DNA from: a virus
DNA: 64,000 nt
Strand: one strand, 5' to 3'
Virus record (IMG/VR): IMGVR_UViG_3300047334_000085
Both the position numbers and the translations under genes were made by a program. Below, piece by piece: positions 44,632 through 62,338 of this stretch; positions within the stretch are counted from its first letter, which is position 1, and the number at the start of each line of letters is the position of its first letter. The notes below the pieces were generated by a model. The model saw nothing but the letters and a program-made list of their open reading frames with translations, was not told the DNA's origin and searched no databases.

Positions 44632-44741
44632 CAGATCGCGCCCGTCTTGATGGCGATCAGAACAAGCAGCCACACGATCGCGCTGCCTTCCACGGCCAGA
44701 AGACCCATCAGCACCGGAAACGCCCAGCGAGGGGCCGGCAT
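44631..44741 (-). CDS. Micro-ORF, 36 aa, single TM
   Basis: Not in the ORF track. Translation is MPAPRWAFPVLMGLLAVEGSAIVWLLVLIAIKTGAI. TGATG coupling to the 44741..45088 gene. Confidence 0.35.
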   Translation of the reverse strand: MPAPRWAFPVLMGLLAVEGSAIVWLLVLIAIKTGAI

Positions 44742-45088
44742 CATTTGCGCTTGGCTTTTTCCAGCGCGATCACGCGCGCTTCCAACTCGATATAGAGATT
44801 GAACAAACTCTTGGCTTGTTCGGCCAGCGGGAGGCTTTCACGGAGCGCATCCGGCGCCGTTTCTTCTGCGCTGTCGGCGTCACCAAAGCCCACGATTGTC
44901 TTAGCATCGAGGCGATCTTGAAGTCGGTCGATACGCGCCGTCAGATCGCGGCGGAATAAATTAACCTCAGCGGCAAGCTCGTCGAGTCTGTTAGCGTGAG
45001 CGACCCCCGAATTCACCACGGTGTTTCTCAGTCCCCTAAAATCGCGTCCTAGATCATCCAAAGCCGCCAGGATCAGATCGTCAGACAT
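44741..45088 (-). CDS. Coiled-coil protein in a reversed, AT-richer cassette
   Basis: Start at MSDDLILAALDDLGRDF (internal ATG of track ORF 44741..45178). Heptad-like LDELAAEVNLFRRDLTARIDRLQDRLD. Confidence 0.5.
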   Translation of the reverse strand: MSDDLILAALDDLGRDFRGLRNTVVNSGVAHANRLDELAAEVNLFRRDLTARIDRLQDRLDAKTIVGFGDADSAEETAPDALRESLPLAEQAKSLFNLYIELEARVIALEKAKRK

Positions 45089-46176: not shown

Positions 46177-48281
46177 TGGGCCTCGATCCGACCCTCGTTA
46201 ACGGCTTCCGGCCGACCCCGATCGGGCCGGACATCGGCACCATGATGCAGAACGCGCAAGCGATGATGCAGGTCGATGCCGCGAAGCAGCAGATGGGCCG
46301 GCAGAACGCGCTGCGCGGCATCCTCTCGCAGCCGGGCGCGATCGACGACAAGGGCAACCCGACCCCGGATGTGATGAAACAGGTCTACGGCATCGATCCG
46401 CAGGCCGGGATGGCGTTGCAGCAGAACATGCTGGTCAACCAGCAGCGCCAGCTCCAGACCGACATGCTGAAGTCCAAGGCGTTCAGCGACAAAATGGACC
46501 TCATGAGCGACGCCTACGCGCCGATCTACGAGACGTATCAGGATGAGGTGAAGGCCGGAGCGACGCCGGAGCAAGCCGGGGCGCATGCGCAGGAGGGCAT
46601 TACCGCCGCATACAACAGGCTGAAAGAGGGCGGAGCGCTGACGCCGCAGGAAGTGCAAAACCTGCCGACGCAATGGGACCCGACCAAAATCGGGCAGTTT
46701 GTCCAGGGATCGAAGAACTTTCAGGAGTGGCGGTCCAATCAGGCGAAGGCGGCGAAGGATCAGCGCACCGAGGCGCGCGAGGAAGAGTCGCTGAAGGAGC
46801 GCGAGCGGCACGACCGGGCGGAAGAAGGCCGGACCGATTTTGGCCCCGTGGTGCAAGGCATCGTCACGCAGGACGGCAAGCCGGTTCGCGTCATGGCGCA
46901 GCAGAACAGGCAGACCGGCGAATGGGTGTCAGCCGACGGCGACCGCAGACCGCTCGACAAGACGTTTCAAATCCAGAAGCCGCCGGCTGCGGGTTCGGTT
47001 GCGGAAACCCGTGAGCGGTTTCGTGACGACCTCGACGCTGACCCGGAGTGGAAGAACCGCTCCAACATCGACAAAGACATGGAGGTGGAAAGCCGCATCA
47101 AGATCGCCCAGGGCACCAAGAGCGACCCTGCGGCGTGGGATTCGCTGGCCGAAGAAATCGCTTCGTATCGCACCGCGCCGCTGTCCGGCTTTGCCAAGGT
47201 CCGCCCTGGCGGGCCGGAGGTGATGGCACGGGTGATGAAGCTGAACCCGGACTATGAGGAAGGGCGCTTCCAGGAAGTCAACCGCGCCATGATCGAGTTT
47301 GGCCCCGGCAAGAAGGGCGACACGATCCGGTCTTTGAACACCGCTGTGCAGCATCTCGATGTGCTGGATAAGGCTGCTGACGCGCTGAACAATGGCAATG
47401 TCGCGCTGTTCAATCGTCTCGCGAACACGATTGCGATTGAGTTTGGGGTGCCGGCGCCGACCAATTTCAACGGCTTGAAACAGATTGTCGGCACCGAACT
47501 GCAAAAGGCCATCGGGGGCGGCATCGGCGCCGAATCCGACCGCGCACAATTCGGCAAGGCCCTTGATGCGTCCAATTCGCGTGAAGCGCTGGGCGCTGTG
47601 ATCAACAGTTTCAAGCTGCTGATGGGCGGACAGGCGAGGACGCTGAAGCAGCAATACGAGGATTCGACCAACTTCACATCGGGGCCGTTTGCGTTCGAAA
47701 AGAAACTGCTGCCCGAAACCATCCAGCAACTCGGGCTGTCTTCGGGCGAAAGCGGAAAGGCGGGCGCGGGCGAAACAGCAAAGCCGCCGCCAGAAGTTAT
47801 GACCAGCGCCGGCGGAAGATGGCCGGAAGGCACGCAGATCCCGCCCGATGCGGTGAAAAATCTACAGCAACACCCGGAAACCGCCGATGCGTTCAGCAGG
47901 AATTTCGGCGTCGGGGCGACGAAGCAAATCCTTGGCGACAAGATGCCAGGCGAGAAGAAGGCCGACACAACACCGGCCAAGAAGGACGAAGGAGCCAAGC
48001 CGCAGGGCGCGGTCGAGGTGCCCGCAGCGCGTGCCAAGGACCCCGACGGCACGACCTATAACGGCGGCAAATTCGTCAAGCGCGGCGGCTACCTCGTGCC
48101 GCTGACCGCGCAGGATAATGCCGCCGCCGCCAAGCCCGGTGCGACGCAGCCAAAGACCGCCATTCCGCCACGTCCGGCGCGTGTGCCGCGCGGCAGCGTC
48201 TACAGCCCAAGCCGTCAGATGTGGCGTGATTCCACCGGACGGCTCTACGACGCCGACGGCAATGCGTTCCCGGCGCCATAA
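46176..48281 (+). CDS. Internal-virion/ejection-type protein (701 aa)
   Basis: TGATG coupling on both sides. The assignment rests on position, like P22 gp20. Confidence 0.65.
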   Translation: MGLDPTLVNGFRPTPIGPDIGTMMQNAQAMMQVDAAKQQMGRQNALRGILSQPGAIDDKGNPTPDVMKQVYGIDPQAGMALQQNMLVNQQRQLQTDMLKSKAFSDKMDLMSDAYAPIYETYQDEVKAGATPEQAGAHAQEGITAAYNRLKEGGALTPQEVQNLPTQWDPTKIGQFVQGSKNFQEWRSNQAKAAKDQRTEAREEESLKERERHDRAEEGRTDFGPVVQGIVTQDGKPVRVMAQQNRQTGEWVSADGDRRPLDKTFQIQKPPAAGSVAETRERFRDDLDADPEWKNRSNIDKDMEVESRIKIAQGTKSDPAAWDSLAEEIASYRTAPLSGFAKVRPGGPEVMARVMKLNPDYEEGRFQEVNRAMIEFGPGKKGDTIRSLNTAVQHLDVLDKAADALNNGNVALFNRLANTIAIEFGVPAPTNFNGLKQIVGTELQKAIGGGIGAESDRAQFGKALDASNSREALGAVINSFKLLMGGQARTLKQQYEDSTNFTSGPFAFEKKLLPETIQQLGLSSGESGKAGAGETAKPPPEVMTSAGGRWPEGTQIPPDAVKNLQQHPETADAFSRNFGVGATKQILGDKMPGEKKADTTPAKKDEGAKPQGAVEVPAARAKDPDGTTYNGGKFVKRGGYLVPLTAQDNAAAAKPGATQPKTAIPPRPARVPRGSVYSPSRQMWRDSTGRLYDADGNAFPAP

Positions 48282-51200
48282 TGCCGCTTGACCAGCAAAA
48301 CCTCCCCGATGATTGGGCTGTCGCCGCTGACGATGACCCCGAGGAAGGCCGCCGCGCCAAGGCGGCGTTCGAGCGCAACAAGGCGTGGACCAAGCCCGGC
48401 GCGAGAGATTTCACCACCACGCTGTCACCGGCCGAGGAAAAGAAGTTCCAGGCGTGGGTGAAAGCCAACGATATCCCCAACGATGACAGCCCGCAGGCCG
48501 ATTACGACATGCGCGGCTACTGGAAAGCCTCGCAGGACCCGAAAACCTGGAAGAAGCTACAGACCGAGGGGAAGATACCCGAGGACGTCGAACCGGCCGG
48601 AACCAAGGTCGATCCGAATGACGGCAAGCCGCACTACCCGGACTGGTGGAAAACGCCGTTTCACGAGACGTTCTCGAATGAAAGCCAGTGGGCGGACCCG
48701 GCCAAGGCGCCGAAGTGGAACGCCAAGGACCAGCTTGTTGGCCTAGACGGAAAGGTGCTTTTCGACGATCGGGACCGGGCCAAGCGGCCAGACCAGAACG
48801 CCGATGCGTTTGTCCCGGATGCGCCGGCGGGTGATCAGTTCGTCCCGGATCCGCCCACGGGGCAAGCGCGGGCAAATCCGGGAACTGGCGCGGGCGCAAA
48901 TGACTGGCTGGTACCCGAAGAGGACGGTAGCGCAGCGCAGCCGGGCGCGGCAAGCCCGGCGGTGCCACCGGTGGATGATCTGGGCAATCCGATCGATACA
49001 GGCGGTGCGCCGCAGCCAGCCGCCGCGAGCGGTGCCGGACAGCCTGCCGCAGCGCAGACCATGCCACCGCTCGATGAGTTGGGTATCGGGCAGATGGACC
49101 CGAAAACCGGTCAATTGCCTCCCGGCATGCAAACCGCAAACCCGCTGGATATTCCGCAGTTTGGCGCCAATTGGCTGAAAAACATGGGGGAAGACTGGCG
49201 GACCGGCTTTGCGGACAAGCCAGGATACACGTATGGCCAAGTGCTGCCCTATGCGACGAACCAGCAGACCGGCGCGGTCGAATGGGGACATCAGCCGGAA
49301 TGGGGCCGCCAAATCCTGCGCGGTCTTGGCATCAGCCCGCTCCAGTTCGACATCACCAATCCACAGCAACGCGCGGATGTCGGCGCGGCCACCTTTGCGC
49401 TGGCTCCGGCGCTGTTCCCGGCGATGCGTGGCGGACGTTTTCCCGCCGCGACCGAACCGCCAGCCGGGCCGAAACCGCGTGTTGAGCCGCCGCCTGTTGG
49501 CGGAGGACCGACGGCCGGACCTGATGGCGGTCCATCGCCGCCGCCATCGGGCGGACCGGGCGGCGCGGCGTCCGAACTCGATGATATGTGGCGCGATTTC
49601 AAGAGAAAGCACGGCTATGACCCGCGCACGGAAGATGCGCCAAAGGCCGAGCAACCGCTTGGACCGGCGACGCTGGACGAACCGGCGCCGCCACCTGCGG
49701 CATCCGAAACGCCAGCGCCGGCACTGGAGCAAGCCAAGCCGGAAGAGTTCGTGCCCGACGAACCAGAAAAGGCGAAACCGCAAGCCGAGCCGGAAAAGAG
49801 CACCCGCGTCACCTTCTTTGACCAGAACCGGGGCGAATACGCGACCGGCACGCTCGTCGGCGTCCGGCCGGACGGGATTTATGTCGTTGACCAGGCAGCG
49901 GGCGCTTATACGCTCGTGCACCCCGGATCAGTGGTTGATACCCGCGAGGTCACGGCTGCGCCAACTGCTGATGAACCGGCAGGACCCGATAGTACGAACA
50001 CCCCGCCGCCAACCGAAAACGCCGGGCAGCAAGGCCCCGGAAAGTCCGGGCCGACGGCGGCGGCCGGCGGAGAAACCGCTGGGGCCGGCGCTGATCTCCC
50101 GGCTGGTGCTCCTGAAAAGCCGCAACCGCGCACCGTCAGCGAAATCCAGGCGGAAGACGGCGTTCCGCTCGGCACGGCGGTGCAGACCCATGAGGCGGAG
50201 AAGCTGGCAGCGGAAACCCCGCCAGCGGTCATACCGCCCGACGGCGAGCCGCCGCCCGAAGACCTGAAGAGCGCGCATGAAGGCCCGTGGGAAACGGCCG
50301 GAAAGAACGCTGAAGGCGAGACGGTTTACCGCAACCCGAAAGGCCGGATGGCGACGTTCGATGCCGGCGTGCCGTGGCTGGGTGCGGCGGACGGTTCGGA
50401 TGACGACAACGAGCGGCTGAAGGTGGTCGAGCCTGCCGAGGGCAAAACCAAGGGGAAAACCAAGGGCGAAACCAAGGGTGAAACCCCCGAAAGTGAGCCT
50501 GAAGCCGAGGTGCCGAAGGCGCGGCCGGTCGAGCAAATCCAGGCCGAGGATGGTGTCGGGCTCGGGACGGCGGTGCAGAAGCACGAGGACGAAAAAGCCG
50601 CAGAGCAAGCGGCGGAGAATGTCAAGACCGATAAATCCCCGGATGATTTATCGTTTAACGGCGAGCCCGCCGGCGAAGCCGCCGAACCGGCGGTGAAGCC
50701 CAAACGTGAAACCGCGAAAAGACCGCCGACCGCAACAGAGATTGCGGCAGAGCAACGCCCACCGCGCACCGGGGCAGAGCGGCCGTCTTACTGGATGAAC
50801 GAACCCGAAATCGACGAAGCAATCGACCGCTGGCGCGATGACCCGTTGTTGGGACCGACGACACGCTGGCTCGGCGAGTATCGGGATGCGGTCAACCGCA
50901 ACTCAGACGGCTGGCCGCATTGGGGCGGCAAGGTCGCCGAAACCCTGATGGGATTGATCCAACAGGCTGACCCGCGCTTTGCAAACTACTTTGACAAGCG
51001 CGGCAGGACGATTTTTCCCAACCGGGCGGAAATCAAAGCGGCGGTAGCGCCGATCAAGGCGTTCGCCACCAAGCACAACTTGAAAATCCCGGATTTCGAA
51101 CTGGAGGCAAAAGAGGCGAAGAAGGCCAACGCTGATGACGAAGCGCCGCCGACCAAACTTAAACCCGGCCAGAAGTTTCACGAAAATCCGGACTCCAAAC

Positions 51201-54200
51201 TCGTGGCTGATACGTTGCGCGATGGGGATCACGTAACGACCGACCAAGGAGACACATTCACCGTCACCTATGTCGGCGCCGTGCACAGGAATAAGCCGGA
51301 ACAGGGGAATATGATCGACGTCCGATGGGACAACGGCAAAGAAGTATCCTATCGCCCAGAAGACCTCGAAAGCGTCCTCGCCCCTCGCCCTTATTTCGAC
51401 GCCACTGGCGAGCGGAAGATGGGCGAGGGAGCAACGATCAAGCGCGCCAAGCCAGGGGCGAAGCCGGAATCAAAAACCGAGGCGCCCGCCGCGAAACCGG
51501 CCGCCAAGCCAGAAGAACCGCCCGCCAAGCCCGAATGGAAGATGACGCTGGACGACCTCGATCCGGCTTACCGGGAACGGCGCTACGGCGATCTCTCGCT
51601 GACGGAGTTTCTGCGCCAGGCGCAGTTGCACGAGGCGATCGGTGCCGCCAACGATGCCAGAAGCCAGACACCGCAGGGGCGCAAGGCGGCGTTCGAACGC
51701 GGCAAACGGCTGTTCAGGCCGGGCGGCTACATCCACATGCACCCGGACGGGCAGAAGCCGCCCACCGAGACGCCGCAAGCGAAGCCCGCACCAGCGCCCG
51801 AACCGCCCAGCCAGGACGACACCCATCCGGCATCGCACGACTGGTCTGTGAAGATCGCCGACACGCTGCGCGATCAGGGGCAGGCCAAGGCCAGCGAGAT
51901 GTTCAACGCCCTGGCGGATGCGAACAATCTGACGCCGGCGCAGCGTGAGAAGCTGCTGACCTATACGCGCGGTGCGACCGACAACCCGGATTGGACACCG
52001 ACGCCCTCGCCGACGCCAAAAACCGACACCAAAGCGCGAGCCGGAACTTCAAATGCGCCATCGGCGCTGCCGAGTGCTGCACAAGAATCGCTGGCGCAGC
52101 AGATGAACCATATCGCCGATCTATGGACGGCACAGGGCCGCCCAGAGGTGGCGGCTGAAATCCGGCGCGGGATGCCGGGCAACCTCACACCGGAGGCCGT
52201 CGCAGAGCAATACCAGAGGCTGCGGAACGCCGCACAGCCTGCGCCCGGCGCAGATGCCAAAACGCCACCAAAGCCCACGCGCATTATCACTCCCGAAGAC
52301 CTGGAACGGGCGGAATTGTTCGACCCGGCGCCCGACACAAGGGATATTCTGGACGCGCGGTTCGCCCTGCCGGACGGCAGCATGATTGCTGGATCGGAAA
52401 ACCAGACGCACAGCGACATTGTGCATGCGCTGGATGACGAGCAGATGAAGCCGTCGGTCACCGATTTCGTCGATGAGACGCATGCCGCCCAGCTTGGGAT
52501 GGCGCCCGAAGACGACCCCAATGCGCTCGATGTGTCGATCCGCTATCCGCTGACGCCGGCGCAAAAAACCGCCGTCGCGCAATACATTGCCGCCCGCGCC
52601 ACTTACAACGACGCGCCGGTGATGGTGCAGTACATGCGCGAGACGTTCCCGGTCGATGGCGCCCGGCAGTTCCAGGGCGAGGTCGCCGCGATCGAGGCGC
52701 AAGCCGATCTGTTCGACGGCGCCGCTGCACCCGCCGCGACTGGGACCGACCGCGTTGAAGTCGTCTTGCCATCAGGCCGGAAGATCAGCCTGCCTAGGCA
52801 AATGACGCAAGCAGCGGTTGAGATCGCTCAAGCCGTAGCCGCAGCCGACGCCCAGGTAACAGCGCTGCGCGACGCGATGGGGACGCCCAACACGACGACG
52901 CTCGCGCGGGCCGGTAATGAGGCGCGCGACGCTATCTTTGCACTCCTGCAAACCGCCGGGAAGCACGGGACAGACGTTGACGATTTGCTTGTGAGCGACC
53001 CGTTCTATGCGGGCTTTATGGGGTTTAGCGAGAAGGTGCCGCTGGCGAAGAACCGCGAGAACGCAGCCGGGATGCTCGCTGCATTTGACGCGCTTCTTGG
53101 GCGGCTGGCGCGCGACCACAAAAAGCTATTTGGCGACATATTCTACACACCAGCGGATCAGCCCGCCGCCGCACCCACACCTGATTTGCAAACGCCGGGC
53201 GAAAACGCCATATCGGAGACCCCGGAGGCCGAAGATGGCGATCGAACCGAAAACAGCGGCGTGGATCAAGCAGCAGGTGGCGGATCTCGCCCATCGCGGT
53301 CTGGCACCCGGAAGCCCAAGGGAAACCGACCTTCTGCGCCACTGGAGCCAGGTTCGACCGAAAATGCTGCACCGACTGGACGCAGCGGGGATGGCGGAGA
53401 AGCTGGCGTTCGTCCTGGATCAGAAGAGGTGGGAGGCACGCCAGCAGTACATAGCGGCGGGGATGCCGCCACCGGACGCGGAGGAACAGGCGACACGGGA
53501 GTGGTGCCTGATGGAGCCGGAGGACGAACCGCAAACCCAGCCGTCACCCGACCCAATTTCCACATTGACGACCCCAAGCGAATAATCGGCGGATCCGGGC
53601 CGAAGCAGCGTTTCGCCCGCAACCGCGCCGCTTTAAGGGCGCTTGAAGACATCCAGGCGGAAGGCCGCGATCCGACCCAGGAAGAACTGGAGACCATGGC
53701 CGGGTTCATCGGCTGGGGATCGTTCGGTCAGGAAGTTTTCCAGGGCAGTTTCGAACGCCAACCCTACCGCGAGGGATGGGAGGAAGAAGGCCGCTGGCTG
53801 CGTGAGCACCTGGGCAGAGAGGCGTGGGAAAGTGCCCGCGACTCCATCCGCAACGCCCATTACACCGACCCGCCTACCGTCGCCGCGATGTGGGACATGG
53901 TTCGCCACATGGGCTTCAGGGGCGGGCGGGTGCTGGAACCGTCCATGGGTGTCGGCAACTTCTTCGGCATGATGCCGCGCGACCTGATGGGTCAAAGCGA
54001 TCTGACCGGCATCGAGAAGGAGAAGACCACCGGCGAAATGGCGAAGCTGCTGTATCCGCACGCTGGTATCCATGTGAAAGGCTACGAGGAAAGCAAAACC
54101 GCCGACAATTTCTATGATCTGGTCATCGGCAACTGGCCGTTCGCGCAGCAAAGCCCGCCCGACCGGCGCTATGACAGGCTTTCACCGGCCTTGCACAATT

Positions 54201-57200
54201 ACTTTTTCCTCAAGGCGCTTGATCAGGTCCGGCCGGGCGGGCTCGTGGTCGGCATCACCAGCAACGGCACAATGGACAGCGTTGGCCGCGCCGCTAGGCT
54301 GGAAATGGCGAAGAAAGGCAAGCTGATTGCTGCGTTCCGCCTGCCGTCCGGTGCGTTCAAGGATTACGCCGGCACCAACGTTGTCGCCGACATCATCATC
54401 TTGCAGAAGCGGGCGGAACCGCTGGCCAATGCCGTCGATGAGCCGTGGATCGATGCCACCGAGATGAGCACCGAGCATGGCGACATAAGGGTGAACCAGT
54501 ACTTCCAGGATCACCCGCAGAACGTGCTTGGCACCCTCGATTGGGGCCACGGCACCACTTCGGGGCGGCCGGGAATGATCGTGCATCGCCCCGACGACCT
54601 GGAGGAACGGCTGCAAGCGCTGCCGGCGACGCTGCCAACGGACGCCTACCAGCCCGTGATGCGCGGACGCGAGCCGCGCTTTCTGATCAACAACACGAAG
54701 GACCGGCAGGGCAACATCGTCATCGCTGACGACGGCCATCTTTATCAGGTTCAGGGCGAGCGGCTGGCTCGGCTTGACGACCTGAAAAGCGGGATGACCA
54801 CGGGTTCGGCCAAGGTGGTGAAGGCGCGCGAAGATCAGGTTCGCCGCATGATCGGGATGCGCAAGACGTATGGCGCGCTGATCGACGCCGAACGTGACGG
54901 CAAGCCGGAAGCCGACACGCTGCGCAAGTCGCTGAAGGCGCAGTACGACCAGTTCCGCGCCGCGCACGGTCCGATCGGTAAATCTGACGGCTTGCGTGTG
55001 CTCGACCGCATGAAGGACCCGGCGCGTTCGGCGGTTGAATCGCTGGAACGGCCGGACGGGACGCCTTCGCCCATTCTGACCGAGCCGACGGTGCGTTCGA
55101 GGCGGAACCTGGAAAACCCCTCGATCGCCGACGCATTTGTCCTGGCGCGCAACGAGCAGGCAAATTTCGACCTCGACCGCGTGGCCGAACTGACCGGCAA
55201 GCCGCGCAACGCGGTTGAGGATGTGTTGCTCGACCAGGGCGCCATCCTGCGAACGCCGGGCGGCGGTTTTCAGGCGACCGACGATTATCTGTCAGGCAAC
55301 GTCCGGCGCAAGCTGCGTGAGGCCAAGGACGCGCTGGCCGCTGGCGACGCCAAAATGCAGCCGTCGATCGACGCGCTGACCAAGGTTTTGCCGCCCGACA
55401 CGCCCTATTACAACATCGAGGCGAAGCTGGGTGCGACCTGGGTGGGTGACGACGCATACCGGGCCTTTATCGGCGACCTGTTGGCTCTGACCCCCGATCA
55501 GCGCGCGGCCGTGGATGTCCGGTTCGCCGGGAGCCGCTGGAAGGTGCGGTTCAATGACCGTTCCATAAACCGCAAGGCTGAGGCCAGGACTGTCCACGGG
55601 CACGAAGATTACCCGTTCAACCAGTTGATGATGGCGGCGATGGGCAACCGGTCCATCAGACTCACCTATAAAGACGCCGACGGCAACGATCACCTTGACG
55701 AGAAGGCGACCGAGGAAGTCAACGCCAAAGTCCAGGATCTCAAAGACAAGTTCACCGACTGGGCGTGGTCAGACCCGGAACGCAAGCTGGCTTTCGAACA
55801 AGCCTTCAACGAGTCGATGAACGCCATCGCCAAACCACACTTTGACGGATCGTTCATGGATCTGTCGGGGATGGCGCTGCGCCGGGGCAACGACCCGTTT
55901 TCGCTGCGCCGGCATCAGATCAACGCCATCTGGCGCGCCGTGGTGCTCGGGCGCGGACTGTTTGCCCATGAGGTCGGCACCGGCAAAAGCTACACCATGG
56001 CTGGCGTCGCGGTTGAAGGGCGCCGCTACGGCAAATTCCGCAAGCCCGTGGTGTTCGCGCACAACGCCAACAGCGCCGCCGTCGCCCAAGAGTTCCAGGA
56101 CATGTACCCGGGCGGCAAATTCTTCTACATCAGCCAGCTAAAGCCGGACGAGATCGCCACCAGCCTGCGCCGCATCGCCAACGAGGACTGGGATGCGGTG
56201 ATCATGCCGCACAGCCTGATTGACCGCATGGCGCTGACCAAGCCGACGCTGATGGCATTGGCGGCGGAACAAATCGCGGAACTGGAAAACGCCGCGATCG
56301 AGGCGGCGGCCGAGGATGACATTACGCTGACGCCGGAAGAGATTTACAGCCTGATCGAAGCGTCCAAAACGGACAAGAAGGCGATGGGGCGCCTGCGCAG
56401 CCCGACCGCGAAGGATGTTGTCCGGCAGATACAGACGCTTCTGAACAACATCGAGAAACAGGCCAACCGCGCCTCGCAAGAGGACGCCGTGCCGTTTGAG
56501 CAACTGGGCATCGACGCCATTTTGGTGGACGAAGCGCACGAGTTCAAAAAGCCGCCGTTCGCCACGGCGATGAAGATGCGCGGGCTGAACAAGAAGGCCA
56601 GCGACCGCTCCATCGCGCTTGATTTCCTGACCAAATACGTCAAGGCCAACAACGCCGGGAAGGGCGTGTTCCTGTTCACCGGGACGCCTGTGACCAACAC
56701 GTTGAACGAAATCTTCAACATGGCTCGCTACTTCATGGATGACCGGATGGAGGAAGCCGGCATCAAGGAGTGGGATGCCTGGTTCAACACCTTCGCCGAC
56801 GCGACCAACGACATCGAACTGACCAGCACCGGCGAGATTGAGCCCGTGAAACGGCTCGCGGCATTCAACAACGTCGATGAACTGGTGCGCCAGATGTCGG
56901 AGTTCGTTGATGTCGTCCAGGCCAAGGACATGCCCGAATTCAAGCCACGGCCGACACCGTCGGGCAAGACCCTGACATCGCCGGATCTGACGCCGGAAGA
57001 GCTTAATTTCCTGATGAACGGCCGGACCCTGAAGCCGGAGGGGCGCCCCTACATCAAGGTGGTCACCGACGTGGGCGAGATGTCGCCCGCCCAGGTGGAG
57101 ATCCTCGACGAACTGCGTGAACTGGCCCGCGAGTTTAAGGCCGCTGACGGGAAGCAGAAAAAGGAGTGGATGCAGCAGGGTGACGAGCGGGTGCCGATCC

Positions 57201-60200
57201 GCATCGAGACCAACTCCGCCAACACCGGCATCGATCCCAGGCTGTACAACCCGGACGCGCCGGACACCGAAGACAGCAAGATCAACCGCATCGTGCGCAA
57301 CGTGCTGCGTCACTACGGCGAGCCGGACGCGGCGCAGGCGATCTTCCTCGATCGCGGGTTCAATCCGGTGAAATCGTCCGAGGGGCGGGCCAGCCGCTTC
57401 GTTGTGGTCGATGAACTGATCAAGAAGCTGGTCGAGGGCGGCATCCCGCGTGACCAAATCGCCGTCGTCGCCGGCGGGATGAAAGCGGAGAAGAAGAAAG
57501 AGATCGCCGACGGCATGAACTCCGGCAAGTACCGGATTGCCATCGGCCAGAGCGGCACGCTGGGCGTTGGCGTCAACATGCAGCAGCGGTTGCGCGCCAT
57601 TCACCACTTTGACGCGCCATGGCGTCCGGGTGATCTGGAACAGCGCAACGGCCGCATGAACCGCCAGGGCAACACCTGGAACATGGCATACGAATACCGC
57701 TACGTGACCGAAGGCATCGACGGCCGCCGCTGGCAGGTTCTTCAGGTCAAAGACAAGTTCATCAAGGCGTTCATCGCCGCGTTCAACGACACCAGCGGCA
57801 AGCGCATCGGCAATATCGAGGGCGATGCGGCGGATATGGCGGAGGAGGAGGACTTCTCGAAAACCTTGTCGGCCGCTGCCGGCGACCCGAGAATTATGAT
57901 CCGGGCGAAATACAAGGCCGATGTGGACCGTTTGCAGCGCCGCGAGCGGTTGCACACGCGAGGTCAGGCCGAGGCGATCCAGCTTGCCCGCGATCGGCGG
58001 GTGAGCGGCGAGCGTTTGCAGCAGCAGGCGGCCGAGCAAGGCCGTTACGCCGATCGCTGGGAAGCATCGGTTGACCGTGCGGCGAAGGCGGCCGAGGCCG
58101 ATGGAGACGACCGCAAGTGGTATGAGATTGACGGCGACGAGGCCCAGGCGGCGGCCAAAATCGCTGACCTGGACACCAAGATCGCCGGTTTGGACGATCA
58201 AATCTCCAAGGCGCGGAAGGGGCTTCAAGATTTAAAGGACGAAGGCAAGCCGTTCGGTCACGTTGAACGGCGCCTTGACCGGCTGATTGGCGCCAAAGAC
58301 CGGGCGCAGGCGGCGATTGAAAGCGCCAGGTCCACCGGGCGCTGGTTTGATACCGGCAGCGATCTTCAGGATGCGCTTGACAAGGCGATCGCCCAGGTCG
58401 CCAGGGGCGAGAAGCGGAAACTCGCGACAGTCGGCGGTTTTGATATCGTCGGTAACTGGAGCAGCCCGTTCAACTTGAACGAGGCGCCGCGCATCGAGAT
58501 CTACGACCCCCCGAGCGGGCAGTTTGTAGACTGGGTGACCGGATTGACGGTGCTGCGCATCGCCAATGAACTGAACCAACGGCGCCAAAAACAACAATCC
58601 TGGGCGACTGAGGCCGCCGAGAAGATTGCGTCGATCCCCGCGCTGGAAGCGGCTGGCAAACAGGATTTCCCGCAGCAGGAAAAGCTGACCAAAGTGCGCC
58701 AGCAGCTTGCCGCGCTGGAAGACGATTTACAGACCAATCCAAACCCGCCGCCGTCATGGCTGCGCAACGGCGCGCCGATGGATACCGACATTTACGTGGA
58801 CGGGGAGCCCCGCACGGTGCGTGGGCATCGGGTGGCCGACGACTATTTCCTGGTCACCGACGAGGGCGAGGTGCCCTACCTCGCGGCGATGGACGCCAAC
58901 GGGCTGCGGATTTTCACGGTTCACGAGCCGCCGCAAGTGGTGTCGCGGGAAGCGCCGGACTGGGTCAAGCCGCATCTGGAAGCGACCAGAGGGGTGTCCG
59001 AGGGCGACCCGTATGTCTGGCACGGCGAACTGGTCTGGCACAACCGAGACCTCGCGCTGATCAAGGGCACCACAAACCTGTGGGGACCGGACGAGACCAC
59101 GTTTGTGGGGTTCAAAAAGGGCATGCCTGCGGAACCGGGCCGCAACCACATCGGCATGATGACGCCGAGGGGCTTCAAGCCCCAAGAGTGGGAGCGGCTA
59201 GGTCAAGCACGCGACGATTACCTTTCGCGCGAGGCGAACAGGGCGGCGCTTGATGCTACGGCCAAGCCGGTGCCGGCGAGCGCGTTCTCGCCGACGCGCG
59301 GCCTCGATTTCAACATGGATCGCGGCGCCGATGATGCGGACCGGCCGGTGCGCGGGCTGCCGCGCGGCGGGCTGGCCGAGGACAGCGGTGGCATATCGGT
59401 GCCGCTCTACTCGGCGGTGCAGCGGGCGGCGGACGGGCTGAAGCAGGCCAAGGGGACCGGTCAGCAGATGCTGGCGCAGATCACCAAGGCGCCGGGCGTG
59501 AAGCCGGAAGAGATTGAATGGATGGGTCTGGATGACTGGCTGAAAGGCCAGCCGTCGGTGACCAAGCAGCAGATCCAGGATTTCGTGGCGGCCAACCGGC
59601 TGGATGTGCGGGAGGTGCACAAGGGTGGCGCCGAAGCCCGTGCCGCCTTGCTGGCGCTGGAGCCGGAACTTCGTGCGCTTGGGATCAAGAAAGAGCTTGG
59701 CGAAATCTCGTCAAGGGACATTGCTGACAAGGGCGGATCGGATGATCTGCTTGACAGGTTTTGGGATGCCTTAGAGCAATCGACAAAAGAACCGCCGAAA
59801 TACGCCTCTTGGCTGAAGCCGTTCCAGGCCACGCCGAATTACCGCGAGGTGGTGTTCACACTGCCGCCGAGTGCCGAACGGCAAGTCTACAATGTAGTAC
59901 CTCACCCTTCAGGCACGGGATTTGCCATTCAGCGCGGCAACGGTTCGTTTATCACGCAAGGCCCCACGACGCCGAACCCAGGCGCGCCAACATTGTGGGA
60001 CAGCAGAGAAAGCGCGGAGCACTACGGTGTTCCTGTGCATCGCGCGAAAGACCGTCAGCAGGGCGGCGACTACCTTTCAGGACACTGGCACGAACCGAAT
60101 GTCGTTGCTCATGCCCGTATTGACGAGTTCACCGCCCCGGACGGCGCGCGGGTGCTGATGGTCCATGAGGTGCAAAGCGACTGGCACCAGAAAGGGCGGA

Positions 60201-62338
60201 GGGAAGGGTATATTGAGCCGCCACCCGTCCCGGAAAAAATCACATCGCTACCGGCGGGCTATAGCGTCATCAAGTTCCCGACCGGCTTTCTCGTGACGGA
60301 CCCCGATGGCCGGCACATGACGTCGAGCGCCTTCCAGACCCAGGACGCAGCGGTTGCTGACACGATTGACCGCCTGAACGAATTGGAGGCTGACCGGGCA
60401 CAAAGGCCGTATCAGGGCGATCGCGTCCCCAACGCGCCGTTCAAGACCACGTGGCCGGCGCTGGTGATGAAGCGGATGATCAAATTCGCCGTGGATAACG
60501 GCTTTGACCGTGTGGCGTGGTCGCCGGGGGAGCTGCACGCGGACCGGTATAACCTGTCCAAGCATATCAGCCGCGTCGAATATGACCAAAGCCCCAACAA
60601 CCCCGAGGGCGGAAATTTCAAGGCGTTCGATCAGGACGGCTTTGCGGTGATTAACCGCTACGCCAAAACGGCTGAGTTGCCCGACATAATCGGCAAGGCG
60701 GCGGCGGACAAACTGCTGGCGCGAAATCCCGAGGGCGACAAAATCACGCAGGCCAGCAGTATCAGGCGAACGCTTCGCGGCCTTGATCTGAAAGTCGGCG
60801 GCGAGGGCATGACCGGCTTCTACGACGACATTCTGCCCAGGACGGTGCAGAAGATCGTCGGGAAATACGGTGCCAAGGTCGGGCGGAGCGAGGTCCGAGG
60901 TGGACCGGAGGCTGATGCTTACGAGGCACTCAACCGTGGGCAATCGTCATCGGTGGGAGACCGTAGCAAAGCCTTTGCTACCGTCCATTCCTTCGACATC
61001 ACGCCGGCGTTGCGCGACGCGGTGCAGACTGAGGGGATGGCGCTGTTCGAGCGCAAGCCGGGTGGTGCGGATACGAAACAGACATGGGCGACGCCGCTGG
61101 CCGGAGACATCGGCGGGACCGTCGCCTGGGAGAATAAGGGCCTCGCTCTGATCCGGGGCCATTCGCTCAATGGCAAGCGTATCTACGTGCCGGCCAAGGA
61201 AGGCATCGGCCGCGCCAGCGTGGATATCGACAGCTACACCGGCAAGCACTTCACGCCGGACGAACTCGCCCGCCTGAGAACGGCGCGTGACAAGGTTGCG
61301 GCGGCCGATGTTGCGGCGCTGACGAAGCGCCAAGCGGCAAGCAAACGGGTTTCGCCATGGCCCGACGGCGGGATGAACTTCACCGACCTGCTGTTCGAGG
61401 CGCCGGAGCAAGGCCATGGCGAGGCTGGCGACTGGACCCGGCAGAAGGGCATCGAAACCCACCACGAGCACATCGCGGTGGTGGACAATGCGACCGGGCG
61501 GATTGTGCATGCCGGGACCAACAATCAGCGCCGCGAAGTCGATTTTCCGCACGCCAACATCGCCAGGACGAACAACAGCGTCACGCTGCACCACAACCAC
61601 CCCAACAACACCGGGCAGTCACGGCCGGATATCGTCTACATGGCAAATCCGGGCGTCAGCCATATGGTCGTGCATGGGCATGACGGATCGACCTCGATCG
61701 CCTCGCTGGGTGCCAACGCCGGGTTCGTGCGGACCGCTGATGAGGTGGCAGCGAACGCCAAGACATTGGGCGAGGCATACGACCGGGCGGATGCAACCGC
61801 TCGGCAATTGCTGCGCAAGCGGGTTACCGCCGGCGACGTGAGCGAAGAAGTAGCGGGCCAGTTCCGCGCCGAAGTCACCAACCGGCTGCTGGATGCGGAA
61901 GGGATCACCAACTATGTGTCCACCCGTGAACTGCCGCCCGCTATCAAGCTGGCTGTCGAGCAGACATTGAAAGACCTGGGCTATGATAAGCGGCAGATTG
62001 ATCGATCCACCCGACGAGTTCGCCCCGAAGAGCGAGTTGCAAGCCTTCCTCGACCAGTACGAGGCGGATCCGGACCCGGACGTAAAGCGGATGGTGGCCG
62101 AGGTAAGGGGCTATCTGGAGGACAAGGACAAGCCGATGTCGCAACGCCGGCCGATCAACCAAGCCGCGCAGATGCGGCAGCGCAAGAGGTAGCCGGCAGC
62201 GATATGATCCGCAACGCGCTGGCGTGGATGGCTGGCAGGGCGTCGAAGCCTGGCGGGCTTGCGGAGGCGCCGAACGCCCTGGCTGCGATAAGCCGCAGCA
62301 TACCGAAATCGCCGTCCCGCAACGCTTTGAGGCAATGA
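48281..62338 (+). CDS. Giant polyvalent protein (4,685 aa): N6-adenine DNA methyltransferase + SNF2/DEAH helicase + JAB/MPN-like + multiple unassigned modules
   Basis: Uninterrupted frame in the ORF track. The motifs are listed in the sub-features. Two internal stretches look non-coding in this frame (see findings). Confidence 0.75.
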   Translation: MPLDQQNLPDDWAVAADDDPEEGRRAKAAFERNKAWTKPGARDFTTTLSPAEEKKFQAWVKANDIPNDDSPQADYDMRGYWKASQDPKTWKKLQTEGKIPEDVEPAGTKVDPNDGKPHYPDWWKTPFHETFSNESQWADPAKAPKWNAKDQLVGLDGKVLFDDRDRAKRPDQNADAFVPDAPAGDQFVPDPPTGQARANPGTGAGANDWLVPEEDGSAAQPGAASPAVPPVDDLGNPIDTGGAPQPAAASGAGQPAAAQTMPPLDELGIGQMDPKTGQLPPGMQTANPLDIPQFGANWLKNMGEDWRTGFADKPGYTYGQVLPYATNQQTGAVEWGHQPEWGRQILRGLGISPLQFDITNPQQRADVGAATFALAPALFPAMRGGRFPAATEPPAGPKPRVEPPPVGGGPTAGPDGGPSPPPSGGPGGAASELDDMWRDFKRKHGYDPRTEDAPKAEQPLGPATLDEPAPPPAASETPAPALEQAKPEEFVPDEPEKAKPQAEPEKSTRVTFFDQNRGEYATGTLVGVRPDGIYVVDQAAGAYTLVHPGSVVDTREVTAAPTADEPAGPDSTNTPPPTENAGQQGPGKSGPTAAAGGETAGAGADLPAGAPEKPQPRTVSEIQAEDGVPLGTAVQTHEAEKLAAETPPAVIPPDGEPPPEDLKSAHEGPWETAGKNAEGETVYRNPKGRMATFDAGVPWLGAADGSDDDNERLKVVEPAEGKTKGKTKGETKGETPESEPEAEVPKARPVEQIQAEDGVGLGTAVQKHEDEKAAEQAAENVKTDKSPDDLSFNGEPAGEAAEPAVKPKRETAKRPPTATEIAAEQRPPRTGAERPSYWMNEPEIDEAIDRWRDDPLLGPTTRWLGEYRDAVNRNSDGWPHWGGKVAETLMGLIQQADPRFANYFDKRGRTIFPNRAEIKAAVAPIKAFATKHNLKIPDFELEAKEAKKANADDEAPPTKLKPGQKFHENPDSKLVADTLRDGDHVTTDQGDTFTVTYVGAVHRNKPEQGNMIDVRWDNGKEVSYRPEDLESVLAPRPYFDATGERKMGEGATIKRAKPGAKPESKTEAPAAKPAAKPEEPPAKPEWKMTLDDLDPAYRERRYGDLSLTEFLRQAQLHEAIGAANDARSQTPQGRKAAFERGKRLFRPGGYIHMHPDGQKPPTETPQAKPAPAPEPPSQDDTHPASHDWSVKIADTLRDQGQAKASEMFNALADANNLTPAQREKLLTYTRGATDNPDWTPTPSPTPKTDTKARAGTSNAPSALPSAAQESLAQQMNHIADLWTAQGRPEVAAEIRRGMPGNLTPEAVAEQYQRLRNAAQPAPGADAKTPPKPTRIITPEDLERAELFDPAPDTRDILDARFALPDGSMIAGSENQTHSDIVHALDDEQMKPSVTDFVDETHAAQLGMAPEDDPNALDVSIRYPLTPAQKTAVAQYIAARATYNDAPVMVQYMRETFPVDGARQFQGEVAAIEAQADLFDGAAAPAATGTDRVEVVLPSGRKISLPRQMTQAAVEIAQAVAAADAQVTALRDAMGTPNTTTLARAGNEARDAIFALLQTAGKHGTDVDDLLVSDPFYAGFMGFSEKVPLAKNRENAAGMLAAFDALLGRLARDHKKLFGDIFYTPADQPAAAPTPDLQTPGENAISETPEAEDGDRTENSGVDQAAGGGSRPSRSGTRKPKGNRPSAPLEPGSTENAAPTGRSGDGGEAGVRPGSEEVGGTPAVHSGGDAATGRGGTGDTGVVPDGAGGRTANPAVTRPNFHIDDPKRIIGGSGPKQRFARNRAALRALEDIQAEGRDPTQEELETMAGFIGWGSFGQEVFQGSFERQPYREGWEEEGRWLREHLGREAWESARDSIRNAHYTDPPTVAAMWDMVRHMGFRGGRVLEPSMGVGNFFGMMPRDLMGQSDLTGIEKEKTTGEMAKLLYPHAGIHVKGYEESKTADNFYDLVIGNWPFAQQSPPDRRYDRLSPALHNYFFLKALDQVRPGGLVVGITSNGTMDSVGRAARLEMAKKGKLIAAFRLPSGAFKDYAGTNVVADIIILQKRAEPLANAVDEPWIDATEMSTEHGDIRVNQYFQDHPQNVLGTLDWGHGTTSGRPGMIVHRPDDLEERLQALPATLPTDAYQPVMRGREPRFLINNTKDRQGNIVIADDGHLYQVQGERLARLDDLKSGMTTGSAKVVKAREDQVRRMIGMRKTYGALIDAERDGKPEADTLRKSLKAQYDQFRAAHGPIGKSDGLRVLDRMKDPARSAVESLERPDGTPSPILTEPTVRSRRNLENPSIADAFVLARNEQANFDLDRVAELTGKPRNAVEDVLLDQGAILRTPGGGFQATDDYLSGNVRRKLREAKDALAAGDAKMQPSIDALTKVLPPDTPYYNIEAKLGATWVGDDAYRAFIGDLLALTPDQRAAVDVRFAGSRWKVRFNDRSINRKAEARTVHGHEDYPFNQLMMAAMGNRSIRLTYKDADGNDHLDEKATEEVNAKVQDLKDKFTDWAWSDPERKLAFEQAFNESMNAIAKPHFDGSFMDLSGMALRRGNDPFSLRRHQINAIWRAVVLGRGLFAHEVGTGKSYTMAGVAVEGRRYGKFRKPVVFAHNANSAAVAQEFQDMYPGGKFFYISQLKPDEIATSLRRIANEDWDAVIMPHSLIDRMALTKPTLMALAAEQIAELENAAIEAAAEDDITLTPEEIYSLIEASKTDKKAMGRLRSPTAKDVVRQIQTLLNNIEKQANRASQEDAVPFEQLGIDAILVDEAHEFKKPPFATAMKMRGLNKKASDRSIALDFLTKYVKANNAGKGVFLFTGTPVTNTLNEIFNMARYFMDDRMEEAGIKEWDAWFNTFADATNDIELTSTGEIEPVKRLAAFNNVDELVRQMSEFVDVVQAKDMPEFKPRPTPSGKTLTSPDLTPEELNFLMNGRTLKPEGRPYIKVVTDVGEMSPAQVEILDELRELAREFKAADGKQKKEWMQQGDERVPIRIETNSANTGIDPRLYNPDAPDTEDSKINRIVRNVLRHYGEPDAAQAIFLDRGFNPVKSSEGRASRFVVVDELIKKLVEGGIPRDQIAVVAGGMKAEKKKEIADGMNSGKYRIAIGQSGTLGVGVNMQQRLRAIHHFDAPWRPGDLEQRNGRMNRQGNTWNMAYEYRYVTEGIDGRRWQVLQVKDKFIKAFIAAFNDTSGKRIGNIEGDAADMAEEEDFSKTLSAAAGDPRIMIRAKYKADVDRLQRRERLHTRGQAEAIQLARDRRVSGERLQQQAAEQGRYADRWEASVDRAAKAAEADGDDRKWYEIDGDEAQAAAKIADLDTKIAGLDDQISKARKGLQDLKDEGKPFGHVERRLDRLIGAKDRAQAAIESARSTGRWFDTGSDLQDALDKAIAQVARGEKRKLATVGGFDIVGNWSSPFNLNEAPRIEIYDPPSGQFVDWVTGLTVLRIANELNQRRQKQQSWATEAAEKIASIPALEAAGKQDFPQQEKLTKVRQQLAALEDDLQTNPNPPPSWLRNGAPMDTDIYVDGEPRTVRGHRVADDYFLVTDEGEVPYLAAMDANGLRIFTVHEPPQVVSREAPDWVKPHLEATRGVSEGDPYVWHGELVWHNRDLALIKGTTNLWGPDETTFVGFKKGMPAEPGRNHIGMMTPRGFKPQEWERLGQARDDYLSREANRAALDATAKPVPASAFSPTRGLDFNMDRGADDADRPVRGLPRGGLAEDSGGISVPLYSAVQRAADGLKQAKGTGQQMLAQITKAPGVKPEEIEWMGLDDWLKGQPSVTKQQIQDFVAANRLDVREVHKGGAEARAALLALEPELRALGIKKELGEISSRDIADKGGSDDLLDRFWDALEQSTKEPPKYASWLKPFQATPNYREVVFTLPPSAERQVYNVVPHPSGTGFAIQRGNGSFITQGPTTPNPGAPTLWDSRESAEHYGVPVHRAKDRQQGGDYLSGHWHEPNVVAHARIDEFTAPDGARVLMVHEVQSDWHQKGRREGYIEPPPVPEKITSLPAGYSVIKFPTGFLVTDPDGRHMTSSAFQTQDAAVADTIDRLNELEADRAQRPYQGDRVPNAPFKTTWPALVMKRMIKFAVDNGFDRVAWSPGELHADRYNLSKHISRVEYDQSPNNPEGGNFKAFDQDGFAVINRYAKTAELPDIIGKAAADKLLARNPEGDKITQASSIRRTLRGLDLKVGGEGMTGFYDDILPRTVQKIVGKYGAKVGRSEVRGGPEADAYEALNRGQSSSVGDRSKAFATVHSFDITPALRDAVQTEGMALFERKPGGADTKQTWATPLAGDIGGTVAWENKGLALIRGHSLNGKRIYVPAKEGIGRASVDIDSYTGKHFTPDELARLRTARDKVAAADVAALTKRQAASKRVSPWPDGGMNFTDLLFEAPEQGHGEAGDWTRQKGIETHHEHIAVVDNATGRIVHAGTNNQRREVDFPHANIARTNNSVTLHHNHPNNTGQSRPDIVYMANPGVSHMVVHGHDGSTSIASLGANAGFVRTADEVAANAKTLGEAYDRADATARQLLRKRVTAGDVSEEVAGQFRAEVTNRLLDAEGITNYVSTRELPPAIKLAVEQTLKDLGYDKRQIDRSTRRVRPEERVASLPRPVRGGSGPGRKADGGRGKGLSGGQGQADVATPADQPSRADAAAQEVAGSDMIRNALAWMAGRASKPGGLAEAPNALAAISRSIPKSPSRNALRQ
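50441..50485 (+). repeat. 12-nt tandem repeat encoding GKTK GKTK GETK GET
   Basis: ggcaaaaccaag gggaaaaccaag ggcgaaaccaag ggtgaaacc. Confidence 0.8.
53235..53585 (+). CDS. Candidate nested +1-frame gene (116 aa) inside the giant ORF
   Basis: GGAGG 53224-53228, then 6 nt, then ATG 53235. TAA at 53583. The translation is balanced and helical (MAIEPKTAAWIKQQVADLAHRGL...REWCLMEPEDEP). Third-position G+C is much higher in this frame than in the host frame. Confidence 0.4.
   Translation: MAIEPKTAAWIKQQVADLAHRGLAPGSPRETDLLRHWSQVRPKMLHRLDAAGMAEKLAFVLDQKRWEARQQYIAAGMPPPDAEEQATREWCLMEPEDEPQTQPSPDPISTLTTPSE
53555..54412 (+). other. N6-adenine methyltransferase module of the giant ORF
   Basis: NFHIDDPKR...FIGWGSF entry motif, AdoMet motif VLEPSMGVGNFFG (about 53930), catalytic-type IGNWPFA (about 54131), ...ADIIILQKR. 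Confidence 0.8.
55913..57673 (+). other. SNF2/DEAH-type helicase module of the giant ORF
   Basis: HEVGTGKSYT (motif I), ILVDEAHEFKK (motif II), FTGTPVTN (motif III), GTLGVGVNMQ, DLEQRNGRMNRQGN (motif VI). Confidence 0.85.
60060..60560 (+). other. Unassigned conserved-looking module (HWHEPNVVAHARIDEF...LMVHEVQSDWHQKGR...PFKTTWPALVMKRMIKFAVDNGFDRVAWSPGE)
   Basis: Motifs read from the translation. I recall similar E.QSDW-type modules in other very large phage proteins but cannot name a family. Confidence 0.4.
61451..61710 (+). other. JAB/MPN (RadC-like) metallopeptidase-type module of the giant ORF
   Basis: E.HHEHIAVV...VTLHHNHPNNTGQSRPDI matches the E...HxH(P)x(6-7)S/RxxD JAMM pattern. Confidence 0.6.
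61983..62192 (+). CDS. Candidate nested +1-frame gene (69 aa) near the 3' end of the giant ORF
   Basis: The ORF-track translation (MISGRLIDPPDEFAPKSELQAFLDQYEADPDPDVKRMVAEVRGYLEDKDKP...) is protein-like with G/C-ending codons. The host frame here reads Arg/Gly/Pro filler with mostly A/T-ending codons. Confidence 0.4.
   Translation: MISGRLIDPPDEFAPKSELQAFLDQYEADPDPDVKRMVAEVRGYLEDKDKPMSQRRPINQAAQMRQRKR

Follow-up and report, generated by a model that had tools for sequence, protein, structure and literature searches.

A 4,685-residue DarB-type protein among the ejection genes of a P22-like podovirus

Results

The 64,000-nucleotide stretch of viral DNA analyzed here (IMG/VR record IMGVR_UViG_3300047334_000085; hereafter the window) carries a giant open reading frame (ORF) on the plus strand at 48281..62338, which takes up 22% of the window. 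The frame opens with an ATG and runs without internal stops to encode a protein of 4,685 amino acids (510.5 kDa, isoelectric point 5.5). An earlier note on this DNA, made without database searches, had described a single 14,058-nucleotide frame encoding a polyvalent protein with a methyltransferase-helicase core in the ejection-protein slot of a P22-like module. The frame has exactly the coordinates and length given there, and every motif quoted in the note was located at its given position.

That such a frame might be found broken on resequencing had been raised as an objection, and adjacent genes could in principle have been fused by sequencing or assembly errors: the length is extreme, and high-GC genomes do yield long spurious frames, such as a 696-residue antisense ORF at 56138-58228 in the window. 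Against this, the exact 4,685-residue product is indexed in 30 blocks of a public assembly collection, and the identical product was present on all 10 of the contigs that were read, which were independently assembled and mostly 50-200 kb long (ENA and NCBI). In one of these, an 88.5-kb ENA/NCBI contig, the giant gene is flanked by the same neighbours. The codon-position signal is likewise continuous: G+C content is highest at the third codon position in 19 of 23 segments of 600 nucleotides, and the other four are Pro/Ala/Gly-rich linkers, where G+C at the first position is raised as expected. Relatives of 3,640-4,947 residues also occur in finished phage genomes. Because at least 10 separately assembled contigs encode the identical product, we conclude that the giant frame is real and reproducible, not a one-off sequencing artefact, and we regard a fusion artefact as extremely improbable.

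A megablast search with the whole giant gene found nothing among deposited phages, indicating that it has no close nucleotide relative there, and IMG/VR and GTDB genomes, when scanned, revealed no close relatives. DNA-level repeats within the ORF were limited to three short pairs, at chance level; the protein-level repeats are old.

Judged by its motifs, the central part of the protein (residues ~1760-3560) is an LPD36/N6-adenine methyltransferase/SNF2-helicase triad of the P1 DarB type with its catalytic motifs intact. A PHROG profile search matched residues 1668-3253 to phrog_10089, 'DarB-like antirestriction' (E = 0, 1421 bits). Further supporting this assignment, a five-way alignment of the giant protein with gp31 of Pseudomonas phage vB_PaeM_USP_18, Bcep22 gp75, VvAW1 gp01 and P1 DarB contains every defining feature of the LPD36-methyltransferase-SNF2 unit as set out by Iyer et al. 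(2017; PMC5512222), namely the GxGU motif, the YT cap, motif I, the catalytic tetrapeptide, and helicase motifs I, II, III and VI. The proposal of a polyvalent protein with a methyltransferase-helicase core is thus borne out by phrog_10089 and the alignment, and the methyltransferase and helicase profile matches, whose absence would have told against the proposal, were found (phrog_10089, ResIII and Helicase_C).

The LPD36-type helical domain (53564..53860, on the plus strand like all features below unless stated otherwise) was recognised by motif and alignment only, not by a Pfam model; its GxGU motif, GWGS at residues 1811-1814, aligns with GWGS in USP_18, GWGA in Bcep22, GWGG in VvAW1 and GEGG in P1 DarB. 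It is followed by a gamma-class N6-adenine DNA methyltransferase (53861..54460), assigned from phrog_10089, the alignment and a weak Pfam match to the Eco57I methyltransferase (E = 0.03), with an HYT helix cap at residues 1858-1863 (YT at 1861), motif I as LEPSMGVGNF (1885-1894) and motif IV as GNWPF (1950-1954). The earlier note had pointed to NWPF as a variant catalytic tetrapeptide, and the variant is genuine within the family: it recurs in USP_18, the tetrapeptide of Bcep22 and VvAW1 is NPPF, and that of P1 DarB is NVPF. Since the N, P and F are invariant in all five sequences and only the second position differs (W, P or V), NWPF represents normal family variation at that position.

The SNF2-type helicase/translocase of superfamily 2 (55886..57775) is supported by matches to ResIII (E = 6e-6) and Helicase_C (E = 2e-6), both exceeding the Pfam cut-offs, by a DrmD-like match and by the alignment; its motifs include GTGKS (2566), DEAHEF (2750), TGTPVTNT (2800) and QRNGRMNRQG (3121). 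The core then continues into a C-terminal extension with a charged helical, coiled-coil-like stretch (57776..58960), which matches phrog_10089 profile positions 3006-3227 (E = 2e-7) and is 27.5% identical to USP_18 gp31 residues 3014-3269. As a side observation, the precomputed annotation of the collection places newer Pfam families on the core (PF28554 DUF8437, PF28555 Helicase_dom and PF28553 WH_1), while our hmmscan of the core gave older Pfam families only and no PF28xxx entries.

A tblastn search with the core retrieved 134 records from phages and 2,066 from plasmids, the best match being Pseudomonas phage vB_PaeM_USP_18/25 (47%), followed at ~31% by Bcep22-like phages, Ralstonia phages, Erwinia PEp14, Klebsiella SopranoGao, Ochrobactrum POI1126 and Vibrio VvAW1. 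BLASTP comparison with reference giants delimited the shared part to residues ~1657-3250, plus a weak extension of 250 residues shared with USP_18; the N-terminal 1,650 and the C-terminal 1,100 residues are not common to the reference phages. Neither sequence nor profile searches found a structure sequence-related to the DarB core in the PDB copy searched.

The giant gene stands at the ejection end of a podovirus-type structural module that occupies the plus strand of the window, whose G+C content is 61-66%. Profile searches identified a large terminase (11502-13040), a P22-type portal (22677-25055; phrog_156, E = 2e-126), a scaffold (31925-33049), a major head protein (33599-34780) and a 777-residue gp10-type 'Phage_stabilise'/Hc3 protein (37484-39814; PF11134). 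Next to the giant gene lie a gene for a 207-residue P22 gp7-type 'DNA ejection' protein (45553..46176; phrog_598, E = 2e-11; 29% identical to VvAW1 gp03) and one for a 701-residue protein without family match (46176..48281), its immediate upstream neighbour. Downstream, a gene with Phage_lysozyme2 (PF18013, E = 2e-22) at the N-terminus of its product begins at 62335 and runs to the window end (64000); in full it encodes 915 residues (24061-26808 of contig L012). The 207- and 701-residue genes share one nucleotide (TGATG), the stop of the latter and the ATG of the giant ORF share one (TAATG), and the giant TGA overlaps the downstream ATG (ATGA). These overlaps of 1-4 nucleotides suggest that the last four genes form a translationally coupled operon. 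The 915-residue product is probably the muralytic ejection protein; it may itself be polyvalent. A ParB/Srx-like stretch, 'DGRHRALLAKHAGVDAIPVAI', was seen by eye at its residues ~300-330, where Pfam gave no confirmation.

The portal, the gp10-type tail hub and the gp7-type ejection protein occur in P22 order, which supports the placement of the giant gene within the ejection-protein part of a P22-like module. In pairwise comparison with P22 the portal is 26% identical to gp1 (E = 1e-33) and the scaffold is detectable only marginally, so 'P22-like' applies at the level of family and gene order and does not imply close kinship. BLASTP and phmmer comparisons of the giant, 701-residue and 915-residue proteins with the P22 proteins gave no match at E ≤ 0.01. 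The slot of P22 gp7, gp20 and gp16 to which the giant gene had been assigned therefore stands as a similar genomic position, after the tail-hub genes and with a 207-residue gene that shares the 'DNA ejection' PHROG label with gp7, but pairwise similarity to those proteins is absent. Of the two upstream genes described as ejection-type, the 207-residue one is so by profile, whereas the 701-residue one, without a family match, is a candidate by its position.

The same position raises the question of whether the giant protein is mainly structural, forming or extending a trans-envelope ejection conduit or an internal core as do T7 gp16 and P22 gp16/gp20, with its enzymes secondary. The gene lies roughly where gp20 and gp16 would follow a gp7-type gene, the N-terminal third is long and linker-rich, and a lysozyme is supplied by a neighbouring gene, as in T7-type ejectosomes. 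However, similarity to gp16 and gp20 is lacking, the protein has no identified transmembrane or channel-type features, and the part conserved across all relatives is the enzymatic core and not the flanks; nor is P1 darB among the essential structural genes identified (PMC9024508). We therefore consider a mainly structural role unlikely, while noting that it would be compatible with delivery of the protein as DarB-type cargo.

The closest parallel in gene order is VvAW1 (NC_020488), with a genome of 38.7 kb. Eight of its genes are colinear with the window: TerL, portal (38%), scaffold, major head protein (41%), gp08, Hc3, gp05 and the 'DNA ejection' gp03. One further gene follows gp03, and then, in the same slot as the giant gene, comes the 3,640-residue 'DarB-like antirestriction' gp01. 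Its LPD36-methyltransferase-SNF2 core is 30% identical to that of the giant protein over ~1,600 residues, but gp01 is 1,045 residues shorter, has the canonical NPPF and a C-terminal LPD38, and shows no similarity beyond the core.

Other relatives match the giant protein more closely in size, and a protein of 4,500-4,950 residues is a hallmark of the Bcep22-like phages. Bcep22 gp75 (4,602 residues) and gp69 of the Lessievirus JC1 (4,515 residues) are comparable in length and in their ~22% share of the genome, and lie where the structural module ends. The core of Bcep22 gp75 is 31% identical to that of the giant protein, yet gp75 has an N-terminal SLT, LPD3 and LPD38, none of which the giant protein has; the latter carries instead an N-terminal domain, an E.QSDW module and a JAMM-motif module, described below. 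Murein cleavage is built into the Bcep22 giant through its SLT, whereas here murein hydrolysis probably lies in the next gene. The closest core found, 47% identical over ~1,600 residues, belongs to USP_18 gp31 (4,947 residues, annotated as hypothetical), which shares both the NWPF variant and the post-helicase extension; its N-terminal ~1,400 residues, its C-terminal ~1,700 residues and its neighbouring genes are unrelated. For both USP_18 gp31 and Bcep22 gp75, the giant gene comes last in the structural module and the lysis genes follow directly. When 20 window ORFs were compared by tblastn with 31-44 kb of Bcep22 and USP_18, no match appeared; the core of the giant gene is all that is shared.

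P1 DarB (2,255 residues) is the archetype of the methyltransferase-SNF2 dyad and has all of the aligned motifs in common with the giant protein. It is half the size, is 25-34% identical in three local stretches only, and has no accessory modules of the giant's kind; P1, moreover, is a myovirus in which loading has a Dar pathway of its own. P1 DarB is packaged in the head and is the only family member for which there is genetic evidence, of protection in cis against EcoK and EcoB.

The N-terminal third consists of small islands strung along a Pro/Ala/Gly linker. The linker map, which bears out the long Pro/Ala linkers noted earlier, contains 14 low-hydrophobicity stretches totalling 1,089 residues, of which 12 (977 residues) fall within the N-terminal 1,761; a Gly/Pro/Ala-rich linker (residues 1621-1761; 53141..53563) precedes the core. 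The first island, the N-terminal domain (residues 28-168; 48362..48784), contains DYDMRGYW and HYPDWWKTPFHETFSNES, and the motifs by which it had been picked out earlier lie at residues 40-147. It belongs to a real family, for which 873 cluster representatives were found at E ≤ 1e-3 (50% clustering), typically 45-60% identical and sharply conserved over ~130 residues in the pattern DYDMRGFW...HxPDxWKTPYHxSFSNES...APxWN. Members stand alone (150-200 residues) or occur at differing places within giants as long as 4,492 residues, sometimes adjoining SLT. The domain matched nothing in Pfam, PHROG or the PDB, and it looks like a candidate for the definition of a new domain family. A direct repeat of 44 nucleotides (73% identity; 48358-48401 and 51682-51725) encodes 'KAAFERNKAW.KPG' at residue 27 and 'KAAFERGKRLFRPGG' at residue 1135, so the lead-in to the domain recurs once within the N-terminal third.

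Two SH3/Tudor-like beta segments had also been proposed and were not confirmed. The first, a beta-rich island (residues 507-557; 49799..49951) with a segment in the metagenomic giant P0126 that appears related by eye, had no family match in Pfam or PHROG searches; the second (residues 967-1031; 51179..51373) gave weak hints, to MIB_HERC2 (E = 0.036) and phrog_11307 (E = 0.0017). Between them lies a domain with the pattern 'HEGPWE...GETVYRNPKG...GVPW' (residues ~655-715), which, with its flanking repeats, spans 50138..50596 and was delimited by motif positions and comparison with P0126. The reported duplication of an EIQAEDGV segment holds up: the two IQAEDGV.LGTAVQ.HE.EK copies (residues 620-641 and 751-772) are identical at 17 of 22 positions and bracket the HEGPWE domain, and the unit with both repeats is 58% identical in P0126. 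A further conserved small domain (residues 838-959; 50792..51157) matches phrog_22197 (E = 5e-6) and has stand-alone relatives (P0240 and P0272). Matches of the flanks to AAA_33 (E = 0.0036) and RuvA_C (E = 0.0014) among the Pfam/NCBIfam models are at chance level and were not credited.

Beyond the core, the E.QSDW module (residues 3701-4260, 560 residues; 59381..61060), named for HEVQSDWHQ at residues 3962-3970, also proved to be a real family, with 173 homologues. In their alignment E263, Q265, S266, D267, W268 and Q270 of the E.QSDW.Q motif (numbered on the first sequence) are invariant. Most homologues are stand-alone proteins of 600-950 residues without a Pfam domain, a few are fused to PF18760 or PF04266, and in none of the 173 does a Pfam annotation cover the module itself. 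(A 1,435-residue C-terminal query of the large database returned three matches, probably because low-complexity words saturated the candidates; the 560-residue query worked.) Three genes for separate copies were placed in context: one (L005) is just upstream of terminase, P22 portal and P22 coat genes, one (L006) follows a giant InPase-helicase gene (>3,876 residues) with a 4-nucleotide overlap, and one (L013) has a portal-adjacent peptidase M15 protein on one side and a protein annotated as 'type I restriction enzyme' on the other. The existence of homologues as separate genes suggests that the same functions occur in fused and in split form.

An AlphaFold2 model of the module, built on a 97-sequence alignment, is confident (predicted local distance difference test score, pLDDT, 82.7; predicted template modelling score 0.79) and comprises an N-terminal helical subdomain and an alpha/beta body. 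The AlphaFold and Foldseek check suggested earlier thus yielded a confident model here, but no fold match in the PDB (best E = 0.065, TM-score < 0.1) and, for the JAMM-motif region discussed below, a poor single-sequence model. A profile search of the PDB with the module found no match either. Weak Foldseek rows to GNAT and MreB folds were rejected as chance. The idea that 'D...E-x-Q' in the module marks a PD-(D/E)xK nuclease was also rejected, since the acidic residue is misplaced in the predicted strand order and structural matches are likewise lacking. Against BFVD, the Foldseek matches at E ≤ 1e-3 were 25 large proteins of phages, some of which are annotated as ART-PolyVal, LT_GEWL or 'large polyvalent protein associated'.

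A diverged domain of ~65 residues occurs once on each side of the E.QSDW module. Copy 1 (VWHNRDLALIKG...FKPQEWERLGQAR; 59024..59212) and copy 2 (AWENKGLALIRG...FTPDELARLRTAR; 61115..61288) are 35% identical (pairwise E = 2e-5), and copy 2 also has a weak match to DUF7917 (E = 0.018). Two modules of the giant protein are thus each bracketed by related short segments, HEGPWE by the IQAEDGV.LGTAVQ repeats and E.QSDW by the ~65-residue domain, the first arrangement being kept in P0126. The bracketing segments may be structural clamps or traces of cassette insertion.

The last module (residues 4356-4589; 61346..62047) carries a JAMM-like motif made up of E4396, H4438-x-H4440-x6-S4447-x2-D4450 and then HGHD, with HHNHPNNTGQSRPD at residues 4437-4450. 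The canonical JAMM spacer between the second H and S (x7) is one residue longer. Homologues were found in the giants P0129 (E = 4e-14) and P0134 (E = 2e-23) and in a 231-residue Azospirillum plasmid protein, and the five residues E, H-x-H, S and D are invariant across four sequences 20-30% identical to the window copy. The motif and its conservation would fit the JAB/MPN-like module proposed earlier, which was not confirmed: the giant protein itself did not match the Pfam JAB and RadC models at E ≤ 10. The Azospirillum homologue approached Prok-JAB (E = 0.0036) and RadC (E = 0.027), both sub-threshold, and a two-sequence profile of the module placed RadC 2qlc first in the PDB (E = 0.17), a match lost with four sequences. 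PDB sequence and profile searches otherwise gave nothing significant for the module, nor did a large-database search with residues 4261-4600. The single-sequence AlphaFold model of the region is unusable (pLDDT 50.8 overall and ~40 over the motif). On the strength of the motif we lean slightly towards a RadC-like JAB. In polyvalent proteins, JAB domains of the RadC type are predicted to act on nucleic acids and not as peptidases (PMC5512222), and if the module is of this type, the literature favours a nucleic-acid-directed role over self-cleavage.

Elsewhere in the window the module departs from the P22 layout in two places. Between the large terminase and the portal, which are adjacent in P22 and VvAW1, lie ~9.6 kb of mostly small genes (13043-22677). 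The portal and scaffold genes, adjacent in P22, are here separated by four genes of 207, 364, 728 and 927 residues (25055-31782), of which the 728-residue one matches tail-fibre PHROGs (phrog_4492, E = 4e-50). According to public gene calls of the matching contig, three small genes (35, 37 and 115 residues) are encoded on the minus strand at ~44524-45088, inside the plus-strand structural operon and just upstream of the gp7-type gene, in what resembles a moron-like insertion.

Discussion

We suggest that the giant protein is probably a DarB-type polyvalent protein carried as virion cargo by a P22-like podovirus. What is observed is an intact gene, a core of the DarB family, operon overlaps and synteny with VvAW1. 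Polyvalent proteins as described by Iyer, Burroughs, Anand, de Souza and Aravind (2017; PMC5512222) combine several effector-type domains in one polypeptide, are encoded among late virion genes and have the methyltransferase-helicase dyad as a core theme, as does the giant protein, which joins a methyltransferase, a helicase and at least three further conserved modules in a structural-gene context and is polyvalent in this sense. They also include the RadC-type JAB, which in the giant protein is only possible. None of the catalogued polyvalent Pfam families (LPD, PolyVal, MPTase, ART, PBECR) was detected at E ≤ 0.1 with the whole protein or at E ≤ 5 with segments, whereas Bcep22 gp75 and VvAW1 gp01 match LPD3 and/or LPD38 models. 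The N-terminal domain and the E.QSDW module fall outside the Pfam models, also the ones derived from that study.

Giant DarB-type polyvalent proteins encoded where the structural module of a podovirus ends in ejection genes are already established, both in the literature and in routine annotation, and it is the decorations of this copy that differ. The earlier expectation that such a cargo would be unusual does not hold: VvAW1 has a giant in the same slot, Bcep22, JC1 and USP_18 carry versions of 4,515-4,947 residues, and JC1 gp69 is found in virions. All Lessieviruses encode a DarB-like giant, which accounts for 22.1% of the JC1 genome, and 51 unique peptides of gp69 (4,515 residues) were detected by mass spectrometry of CsCl-purified JC1 virions (PMC9144972); for Bcep22, virion association is stated on the basis of the same paper and the GenBank annotation. 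P1 DarB, a 250-kDa protein with an N-terminal capsid-targeting signal, is present at ~40 copies per head (PMC9024508); it is believed to reach the cell interior, and it inhibits both EcoK and EcoB (PMC9024508; PMC5512222). None of the listed papers since 2019 that mention 'DarB-like' appeared, by title or abstract, to be a functional study of podophage giants.

From these precedents the following course of events can be proposed. By homology, the giant protein would be synthesized late and enter the procapsid along with the ejection proteins; at infection it would leave through the portal-tail channel, either with the DNA or ahead of it. Its anatomy is consistent with such a passage, in that the beads-on-a-string N-terminal 1,761 residues, 977 of them linker, could help the chain to pass through a narrow channel. 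Once in the cytoplasm, the protein's SNF2 motor would track along the entering phage DNA, driven by ATP, while the methyltransferase would methylate adenines or the complex would occlude the DNA in cis; either route could protect against type I-like restriction, as P1 DarB does. The arrangement of domains suggests that murein cleavage would be delegated to the product of the next gene, and, more speculatively, the accessory modules (the N-terminal domain, the HEGPWE unit, the E.QSDW module and the JAMM-motif module) might add early-infection or anti-defence activities.

Several points weigh against this interpretation. Both the packaging and the anti-restriction activity of the giant protein are things that we infer. 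P1 loads DarB by means of DarA, Hdf, DdrA, DdrB and Ulx, and the JC1 paper reports no such Dar loading partners in Lessieviruses (PMC9144972); partners of the P1 type were not identified here either, no search having been aimed at them. A protein of 510 kDa would have to pass a podovirus tail. Pairwise similarity to P22 gp7, gp20 and gp16 was not detected, and since the neighbouring structural proteins are dissimilar to those of Bcep22 and USP_18, the virion evidence of the Bcep22/JC1 type comes from a different lineage. Finally, DNA methylation by the DarB family is itself a proposed mechanism (PMC5512222).

Some of these points would also fit a late intracellular enzyme that never enters the virion and modifies progeny DNA before packaging, like the Dam-type methylases of phages. 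The methyltransferase and motor motifs are intact, as such an enzyme would require, and in the giant protein packaging is only inferred, with P1-type Dar loading partners not identified. The gene nevertheless sits within a translationally coupled operon of ejection proteins, the JC1 and P1 homologues are physically in virions, and a simple maintenance methylase would hardly call for an outlay of 14 kb, or 22% of the window, with so many non-enzymatic linkers and adaptors. We consider a purely intracellular role quite improbable, and retain DarB-type virion cargo as the preferred interpretation.

The flanking modules invite a broader proposal, which we put forward only tentatively and with more doubt than belief: the N-terminal domain and the E.QSDW module could be injected effector domains of new classes, occurring either within DarB-type giants or alone beside portal or terminase genes, with E.QSDW as an enzyme that would disable a host defence or take over a host process as the DNA enters. 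Because both families repeatedly travel with virion-delivered proteins, it is reasonable to consider them candidates for novel anti-defence or takeover activities.

For the biology of these phages, the finding adds a well-preserved example of how P22-type podoviruses too, besides Bcep22-like phages and P1, devote more than a fifth of their coding capacity to one DarB-type giant among the ejection genes. In such giants the enzymatic core alone is conserved and the flanks are freely swapped. The practical value lies in those flanks, which here supply two abundant families without a Pfam, PHROG or PDB counterpart (873 representatives and at least 173 homologues, respectively). The giant protein as such is an expected feature of its kind of phage, and the interest that is left lies in the two uncatalogued families and in the biochemistry of the DarB core.

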